From the NCBI RefSeq assembly GCF_044324785.1, contig NZ_CP172127.1: a DNA stretch of 64,000 nucleotides; one strand, written 5' to 3'. Positions 41,480 to 42,217 of the stretch are shown here, in pieces; positions within the stretch are counted from its first letter, which is position 1, and every line of letters begins with the position of its first letter. The notes beneath the pieces are model-generated. The model was not told the origin of the DNA, made no database searches, and saw nothing but the letters and a program-made list of their open reading frames with translations. Source of the stretch: Escherichia coli (GTDB lineage Bacteria > Pseudomonadota > Gammaproteobacteria > Enterobacterales > Enterobacteriaceae). A program made the position numbers and the translations under genes.

Positions 41480-42217
41480 ATGTCACAGTCTACATCCGTG
41501 CTTCGTCGTAATGGATTTACTTTTAAACAGTTTTTTGTTGCTCACGATCGCTGTGCGATGAAAGTGGGAACGGATGGCATTTTGCTGGGCGCATGGGCAC
41601 CGGTGGCTAGGGTAAAACGTTGCCTTGATATCGGCGCGGGTAGCGGGTTGCTGGCATTAATGCTGGCGCAGCGAACCGATGACAGCGTGATGATTGATGC
41701 CGTTGAACTGGAAAGTGAAGCTGCCGCGCAGGCGCAGGAAAATATCAACCAGTCCCCGTGGGCAAAGCGGATTAACGTCCATACGGCGGATATTCAGCAG
41801 TGGATCGCACAGCAGACAGTGCGCTTCGATTTAATCATCAGTAACCCACCTTACTATCAGCCGGGAGTAGAGTGCGCGACACCTCAACGGGAACAGGCTC
41901 GCTATACCACTACGCTTGATCACCAATCGTTGCTGGCCTGTGCGGCGGAGTGCATTACCGAAGAGGGATTTTTCTGCGTGGTGTTGCCAGAGCAGATTGG
42001 TAATGGTTTTACTGAACTGGCATTAAGTATGGGCTGGCATTTACGTTTGCGGACGGATGTGGCGGAAAACGAAGCGCGACTGCCGCATCGGGTGCTGCTG
42101 GCATTCTCCCCGCAGGCAGGAGAATGCTTTAGCGATCGCTTAGTCATTCGTGGGCCAGACCAGAACTATTCCGAAGCGTATACAGCGCTGACCCAGGCTT
42201 TTTATCTGTTTATGTAA
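41480..42217 (+). CDS. yfiC: tRNA1(Val) (adenine37-N6)-methyltransferase YfiC (TrmN6)
   Basis: Start at [17 protein letters not shown] giving 245 aa; SAM-binding motif and NPPY catalytic motif. Confidence 0.85.

Follow-up and report, generated by a model that had tools for sequence, protein, structure and literature searches.

Three overlapping convergent gene pairs

The window, by which we mean the whole stretch of 64,000 nucleotides of Escherichia coli chromosomal DNA that was analyzed, contains three pairs of convergent genes whose coding sequences run into one another at their 3′ ends. The longest of these, read directly from the sequence, is a tail-to-tail overlap of 16 bp between trmN (also named yfiC) and nadB; the other two pairs, kgtP/yfiM and tadA/mltF, have 4 bp in common. 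A preliminary description of the window had listed three convergent overlaps of 16, 4, and 4 bp, and these are confirmed at the same places both by the sequence and by the gene ends annotated in RefSeq. The genes and the segments that they share are as follows:

41480–42217, plus strand: trmN (yfiC), tRNA1(Val) m6A37 methyltransferase, 245 aa (open reading frame, translation, RefSeq N3 and MG1655)
42202–43824, minus strand: nadB, L-aspartate oxidase, 540 aa (open reading frame, translation, RefSeq N3 and MG1655)
42202–42217, both strands: 16-bp overlap TTATCTGTTTATGTAA, encoding the TrmN end (F)YLFM and stop on the plus strand and the NadB end (H)YINR and stop on the minus strand
42205–42225, minus strand: codons of the seven-residue C-terminal extension of NadB, GNHYINR (BLASTP against the NadB of the relative L092)
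28675–29973, plus strand: kgtP, alpha-ketoglutarate permease (open reading frame, annotation)
29970–30293, minus strand: yfiM, DUF2279 lipoprotein (translation, annotation; homologues with PF10043)
29970–29973, both strands: stop-stop overlap TTAG (kgtP TAG, yfiM TAA; sequence)
56389–56892, plus strand: tadA, tRNA adenosine(34) deaminase (translation, annotation)
56889–58445, minus strand: mltF, membrane-bound lytic murein transglycosylase F (open reading frame, annotation)
56889–56892, both strands: stop-stop overlap TTAA (both stops TAA; sequence)

In the 16-bp overlap, the trmN stop codon TAA occupies 42215–42217, and the nadB stop codon TAA, which appears as TTA on the plus strand, occupies 42202–42204. 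The two shorter overlaps consist of stop codons: The kgtP TAG lies at 29971–29973 and the yfiM TAA is the reverse complement of 29970–29972, while the tadA TAA lies at 56890–56892 and the mltF TAA is the reverse complement of 56889–56891. Convergent overlaps of 4 bp are restricted to the tetramers CTAA, TTAA, CTAG, or TTAG (PMC2174442), and both overlaps fit this rule.

The gene ends at all three junctions are identical in the closest genome, RefSeq E. coli N3, and in K-12 MG1655. Bases 41000–44000, which hold the genes srmB, trmN, and nadB, were matched in 5,425 of 5,426 complete E. coli genomes (best match N3, at 100% identity), and the same trmN and nadB ends recur in dozens of other species as well as in the 5,423 E. 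coli genomes that include this junction. Translations, annotation, and domain-matched homologues indicate that both frames of each pair are real, conserved protein-coding genes.

These observations bear on the possibility that the overlaps are artefacts of annotation or assembly, that is, that one gene end has been miscalled and the genes do not truly overlap. Mispredictions are reported to be frequent among long overlaps in databases (PMC2478687). However, the overlaps seen here are built on stop codons, which are unambiguous, unlike starts; both frames encode full-length conserved proteins; and an error would need to recur everywhere, since the same ends are found throughout the E. coli genomes and the other species. 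Because the stops are unambiguous and the partners are well-known conserved genes, the overlaps are not misannotations. The artefact explanation has next to no chance of being right and is already excluded by the sequence.

Of the 10 convergent junctions in the 64-kb window, three overlap, and the partners at the other seven lie 32 to 193 nt apart. The E. coli genome has, as a rough assumed figure, about 600 convergent pairs. With 58 convergent overlaps counted in E. coli (Lillo and Krakauer 2007, PMC2174442), the overlapping share would be ∼9% of these assumed ∼600 pairs, against which three of 10 gives a binomial P of ∼0.06. The local excess of overlaps is thus mild, and it is nonsignificant after allowing for the selection of the finding.

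Conservation of the overlaps

We scanned the trmN/nadB junction with one genome per species, using the best 80 of 204 matches (TrmN 71–96% identical), which come from Escherichia, Salmonella, Citrobacter, Klebsiella, Enterobacter, Kosakonia, Raoultella, Lelliottia, Siccibacter, Franconibacter, and other genera. Among these best 80 of 204 matches, nadB converges on trmN at 79 loci. Of these 79 Enterobacteriaceae species, 76 have a 16-bp overlap, two an overlap of 8 bp, and one an overlap of 12 bp. Directly past the trmN stop, the three divergent loci have a 1-nt indel, a 14-nt tandem duplication, or a small deletion, and both genes are retained in each. The duplication occurs in Escherichia sp. 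ESNIH1, where two copies of the 14-nt unit TCTCTTTATGTAGT lie over the trmN end (locus L036, about 3725–3760), so that the trmN stop region is doubled and the nadB stop is shifted to give an 8-bp overlap: a natural case of junction remodeling.

The two proteins differ in how much their ends vary. The last five residues of TrmN, F-Y-L-F-M, are invariant in the 76 standard cases apart from one L-to-I exception, and the variable bases of the 16-bp overlap are all either synonymous in trmN or variants of the trmN stop codon. The NadB tail is variable in the species alignment, with R/K/M, N/K, I/M, and H/Y alternatives followed by two hypervariable positions. Read on the plus strand, the nadB stop is TTA or CTA; its first letter is the third position of a TrmN Phe codon and its other two open the adjoining Tyr codon, and either Phe codon leaves a nadB stop in place (TAA or TAG). 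Since the nadB stop is embedded in the Phe-Tyr codons in this way, selection on TrmN alone would fix where NadB stops as well as how long the overlap is. Constraint on the TrmN tail is a sufficient, though not an exclusive, explanation of the conservation; the exact 16 bp in 76 of 79 species, among the best 80 of 204 matches, might also mean that the overlap itself is selected.

The two 4-bp overlaps recur in several related genera. For yfiM/kgtP, the overlap is present in three of four genera (Salmonella bongori, Enterobacter kobei, and Cronobacter turicensis) and is replaced by a 4-nt gap in Shimwellia blattae. For tadA/mltF, it is present in two of three (Enterobacter kobei and Pseudescherichia vulneris), with a 50-nt gap in Salmonella enterica. 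The gaps in Salmonella and in Shimwellia indicate that the respective overlaps can be dispensed with, and both overlaps are, on this comparison, apparently old yet dispensable.

Origin of the trmN/nadB overlap

We compared the genomic context of trmN in four distant relatives whose TrmN proteins are 45–55% identical to that of E. coli (L091–L094). Two of them (L093 and L094) have no nadB at the trmN locus, and in L091 a branched-chain amino-acid transporter gene lies between trmN and nadB. The fourth, L092, keeps the gene order srmB-trmN-nadB-rpoE and has a spacer of 70 nt between trmN and nadB, with a hairpin of 8–9 bp (z of −2.4 and −2.1). Its NadB is 84% identical to that of E. coli, and its last residue aligns with P533 of the E. 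coli protein (BLASTP), so that E. coli NadB has seven extra C-terminal residues, GNHYINR, relative to L092. The end of TrmN falls at the same aligned position in both.

The spacer and the shorter NadB of L092 together suggest that the overlap arose by loss of the spacer. The most likely origin is that the spacer and its hairpin were lost in an ancestor of the Enterobacteriaceae, a direction of change that rests on one informative outgroup.

Terminators at convergent junctions

The preliminary description had also stated that no terminator lies between the partners of the three pairs. Consensus scans found no terminator-like site at the three junctions, and the weak sites nearby occur at chance level (near trmN/nadB, five were found against 3.5 expected). 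When the first 130–140 nt past each stop were folded, on both strands, the energies were no better than those of shuffled sequences (z from −0.2 to −1.8). By both approaches, then, the three overlapping junctions are without a terminator hairpin.

For contrast we folded six convergent junctions of the same window that do not overlap: grpE/yfjD, rplS/yfiB, tyrA/pheA, yfiF/ung, grcA/eamB, and yfiE/srmB, with spacers of 32–76 nt. All six have a GC-rich hairpin of 9–12 bp flanked by A/T tracts. The hairpin-bearing convergent junctions, each with a palindromic hairpin and A/T tracts on both sides, are:

4461–4514
10281–10356
15517–15558
36931–36977 (ung/yfiF)
38356–38409
39982–40013 (srmB/yfiE)

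The three overlapping junctions fold at −0.10 to −0.25 kcal/mol per nucleotide, and these six at −0.27 to −0.41. The absence of a terminator between the partners is thus upheld by scans and folding alike, and it is specific to the overlapping pairs when set against the six others. With the bidirectional intrinsic terminators, of which tyrA/pheA and grcA/eamB are examples, the overlapping junctions share their position at a point of convergence and the task of ending two transcripts; they differ in that the hairpin with its A and U tracts, present at all six of the folded junctions, is found at none of the three.

We considered several candidates for termination or RNA signals close to the overlaps. 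Intrinsic terminators hidden inside the partner genes were rejected, given the chance-level weak sites and unremarkable z-scores. Directly beyond the stop codon of mltF lies a weak motif, GCGC(U6CU)GCGC-UUUAAUUU, which was rejected as a terminator as well, its 4-bp stem being too short and no Term-seq end being recorded there. A 10-bp hairpin in trmN at 42100–42128 on the plus strand, GGCATTCTCC...GGAGAATGCT, lies ∼90 nt before the trmN stop and, on the other strand, ∼75–100 nt past the nadB stop. In the 80 loci examined, most of its pairs are retained in close relatives, a pattern accounted for by the codons for Ala-Phe-Ser and Gly-Glu-Cys that make up its arms. One paired base varies freely among A, G, T, and C without any compensating change in its partner, the invariant T of the Cys codon. 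On the plus strand, G-T accounts for many of the pairs that are kept, and these become A-C mismatches on the nadB strand. This hairpin was rejected as a conserved RNA element of the nadB 3′ end.

Transcript ends in K-12

Since each stop codon lies inside the coding sequence of the partner gene, any full-length mRNA enters the opposing coding region, and the earlier contention that the transcripts must overlap at their 3′ ends follows from the overlap of the coding sequences. Published transcript data, which come from K-12 and thus from another strain than that of the window, agree with this in three respects. All three pairs are named in the MG1655 excludome (Table 1 of the ExcludonFinder paper, NAR 2025, PMC12288877), a list of 165 convergent pairs that show overlapping RNA-seq transcripts in 50% or more of 58 MG1655 transcriptomes. 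The other two respects are recorded 3′ ends of kgtP and a Rho-dependent region on the tadA strand, which correspond to the following features of the window:

29974–30055, plus strand: untranslated 3′ tail of kgtP, running antisense across the end of yfiM (K-12 3′ ends, PMC7815308; RNase III duplex, PMC7373196)
56893–57182, plus strand: tadA read-through antisense to mltF, up to the K-12 Rho region (PMC7815308 supplementary file 2)

On the kgtP strand, the Term-seq set of Adams et al. (2021, PMC7815308 supplementary file 1) has 3′ ends at 2724397 and 2724366, both assigned there as antisense to yfiM. When these K-12 positions are mapped to the window they fall at 30024 and 30055, 51 and 82 nt past the kgtP stop. 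The end at 30024 is located 7 nt after a stem-loop (30000–30017) that has no U tract; the second end, at 30055, falls within a predicted stem and not after it. Dar and Sorek (2018, PMC6061677) report that the 3′ ends of Rho-terminated transcripts sit directly after stem-loops without U tracts, and the end at 30024, being just past such a stem-loop, fits this pattern. The kgtP ends may accordingly be read as compatible with Rho termination.

For tadA, a Rho region at 2697064 on the minus strand of K-12, antisense to mltF, has a Rho score of 9.6 (P = 2e-18; PMC7815308 supplementary file 2). Coverage across it falls from 131 to 14 without bicyclomycin and goes from 134 to 138 with bicyclomycin (PMC7815308). 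The region maps to 57182 in the window, ∼290 nt past the tadA stop and inside mltF. A second Rho-dependent site, weaker than the first, falls within mltF on the mltF strand (PMC7815308), and these Rho records are the sole termination records for tadA/mltF in the files searched. In the same supplementary files, nadB and trmN (yfiC) have no Term-seq 3′ end and no Rho entry, and yfiM has no entry in the Rho table. Overall, termination appears to be displaced into the partner gene and, at least for tadA, to depend on Rho.

Read-through of this kind is seen at other junctions too. Rho termination regions are recorded antisense to srmB, yfiE, ung, and yfiF (PMC7815308), genes of nonoverlapping pairs that do have a hairpin. 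The Rho-terminated read-through at srmB/yfiE and ung/yfiF shows that transcripts of pairs without an overlap enter the partner gene as well. The three junctions resemble the systems in which Rho suppresses antisense read-through (PMC6061677, PMC7815308) in having a bicyclomycin-sensitive region antisense to mltF, and they resemble Rho-terminated ends protected by stem-loops (PMC6061677) in that one kgtP end lies a few nucleotides after a stem-loop without a U tract. They differ from the Rho suppression systems (PMC7815308) in that direct evidence is at hand for two of the six transcripts here and for neither trmN nor nadB.

Duplex RNA and RNase III

The preliminary description had raised the potential for processing of the overlapping transcripts by RNase III. 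At kgtP/yfiM this stands: Table S3 of Huang et al. (PMC7373196), which gives perfectly paired duplexes of 21–22 nt with 2-nt overhangs from cells with intact RNase III, includes the p19-captured duplex UGACGGGUCAGUUGCCAGACG / UCUGGCAACUGACCCGUCACU, labeled "kgtP yfiM," with 1266 and 494 reads. This 21-bp duplex corresponds to MG1655 2724427–2724447 (about 29974–29994 in the window) and adjoins the 4-bp overlap at 2724448–2724451. Duplex formation and RNase III cleavage at the kgtP/yfiM 3′ overlap are therefore documented. No RNase III duplex from trmN/nadB or tadA/mltF is present among the listed rows of that table.

Data for convergent overlaps as a class point to few duplexes. The density of double-stranded RNA in E. 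coli is reported to be 37.9-fold lower at convergent overlaps than at divergent ones (PMC7373196), and the authors of ExcludonFinder report that convergent excludons could not be validated with the p19 data (PMC12288877). A coding overlap would in itself be a lower limit on the overlap of the transcripts: A terminating ribosome is expected to need mRNA past the stop codon, so the transcript overlap should exceed the coding overlap, and it could reach the ∼20 bp that RNase III needs.

Two RNase III-dependent sites are reported near the start of nadB, one at MG1655 2710251 in the rpoE-nadB intergenic region and one at 2710736 in the nadB coding sequence, ∼316 nt from its start (Gordon et al. 2017 supplement). 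Neither is at the 3′ overlap; the first falls in the rpoE-nadB spacer (about 43990 in the window) and the second in the 5′ portion of nadB. The divergent nadB/rseD-rpoE promoter region may form double-stranded RNA, which is unrelated to the trmN/nadB 3′ overlap.

The gene for RNase III, rnc, is located at 50182–50862, ∼8 kb from the trmN/nadB overlap, and the preliminary description had pointed to its presence in the window. RNase III is a diffusible enzyme that acts in trans, so the location of rnc has no bearing on the overlaps and its proximity is coincidental.

Interpretation of the overlaps

Prokaryotic convergent overlaps were reportedly the subject of earlier studies by Fukuda in 2003 and by Johnson and Chisholm in 2004, as cited in PMC10666635, and the excludon concept is said to originate with Sesto et al. 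in 2013. The overlaps described here are already known: They are in the standard annotation, they belong to a textbook class, and a paper of 2025 has reported that the transcripts of these very pairs overlap. They resemble the short convergent overlapping pairs of Lillo and Krakauer (2007, PMC2174442) in lying on opposite strands, in sharing their 3′ ends, in their short length, and in being kept among relatives, and two of the three use the permitted 4-bp tetramers. The seven-residue extension of NadB would fit an origin by loss of a stop or spacer followed by reading to the next in-frame stop, and there is no essential difference from that class, 16 bp being longer than the 4-bp mode and within the usual range.

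We think it probable, and hold this with some confidence, that the three junctions are ordinary short tail-to-tail overlaps, left after the loss of the spacer and its bidirectional terminator in the ancestor of the Enterobacteriaceae. Following that loss, NadB translation would have continued for seven more codons on the strand opposite trmN before meeting an in-frame stop. The overlap would then have been frozen by selection on the F-Y-L-F-M end of TrmN and not by any use of the overlap itself, leaving the NadB tail free to vary. With no hairpin terminator left, each transcript would continue into the antisense of its partner, for tens to hundreds of nucleotides. The untranslated RNA past the stop would be a substrate for Rho, and 3′ exonucleases would trim it back to stem-loops present by chance, steps that have partial support in the published data. 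Sense/antisense duplex would form at a low level and be cut by RNase III, as a by-product with little or no regulatory effect. We infer Rho as the putative terminator for nadB, trmN, mltF, and yfiM; the order of evolutionary events given above and the lack of a regulatory consequence are likewise probable readings.

The overlaps might instead have been selected as regulatory excludons, one gene repressing its partner by transcriptional interference and RNase III, with reciprocal expression, for example, of nadB and trmN. Membership of all three pairs in the MG1655 excludome (PMC12288877), the RNase III-type duplex captured at kgtP/yfiM, and the strong conservation of the overlap speak in favor of this, and excludon pairs as a class have higher synteny and less single-cell coexpression than other neighboring pairs (PMC12288877), which leaves room for function. 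The expression statistics are, however, those of the class and not of these pairs. Although the three pairs share with excludons their opposite-strand arrangement and overlapping transcripts, and appear in Table 1 of PMC12288877, what defines an excludon is that its two genes exclude each other's expression, by interference or RNase III, and these pairs are placed in the list by transcript overlap alone, for which the RNA-seq criterion is satisfied almost automatically where coding sequences overlap. No functional link is moreover known between the partners (NAD synthesis and tRNA methylation; tRNA deaminase and murein transglycosylase; permease and lipoprotein), the conservation is accounted for by the coding constraint on TrmN, and the overlap is absent from Salmonella (tadA/mltF) and from Shimwellia (yfiM/kgtP). 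Double-stranded RNA is scarce at convergent overlaps in E. coli (PMC7373196), and the nonoverlapping pairs srmB/yfiE and ung/yfiF also have Rho-terminated read-through into the partner, so that overlap of the coding sequences adds little. We regard selected regulation as unlikely, although overlap of the transcripts is unavoidable at these junctions. A narrower form, in which the exact 16-bp trmN/nadB overlap is under selection as a terminator-less excludon and NadR-controlled transcription of nadB tunes trmN by interference or RNase III, seems to us highly improbable; if true, it would link NAD status to tRNA modification (m6A37).

Transcription from both sides could also be ended by collision of the converging polymerases, as proposed for E. 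coli convergent pairs with a model and single-molecule data (bioRxiv 10.1101/2022.10.23.513370), and the lack of an intrinsic terminator at these junctions does call for another mechanism. The collision model, however, requires a stem-loop in the junction RNA to fix the site of collision, and none is present here. Collision efficiency also rises with expression (bioRxiv 10.1101/2022.10.23.513370). The genes of these pairs are assumed to be weakly expressed. In addition, the tadA read-through is sensitive to bicyclomycin and ends ∼290 nt downstream, which points to Rho. Collision-driven bidirectional termination is improbable at these junctions. Ordinary overlaps left by terminator loss account for the data better. 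To the published record we add a comparison with other convergent junctions of the window that do bear a terminator, together with a proposed history of how trmN and nadB came to overlap. The trmN/nadB pair would be a small, clean example of the birth and freezing of an overlap, in which a terminator is lost, NadB gains a seven-residue tail that is predicted to be dispensable, and the TrmN C-terminus locks the stop; a pair left without its bidirectional terminator would fall back on termination inside the neighboring gene. Any regulatory effect, if shown, would be one more case of the known excludon mechanism and not a new one, and the significance of the overlaps is small beyond bookkeeping.

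Minor observations on the window

Three further differences in annotation or sequence were noted. The tadA open reading frame at 56356–56892 has an upstream ATG that would give a protein of 178 aa, and RefSeq uses a later non-ATG start that gives 167 aa; tadA homologues are annotated with 161 to 183 aa (the longer ones mostly E. coli variants), and the annotation leaves the start of tadA unsettled. The window derives from a strain closely related to N3 or from another assembly, and not from the N3 record itself: In the raiA-bamD stretch (16720–17580, compared with 16185–17531 of L001), N3 carries an IS4 element of ∼1.44 kb that is absent from the window. A few single-base indels further on also set the two apart, and between lepB and tadA the window is one to three bases longer than N3.
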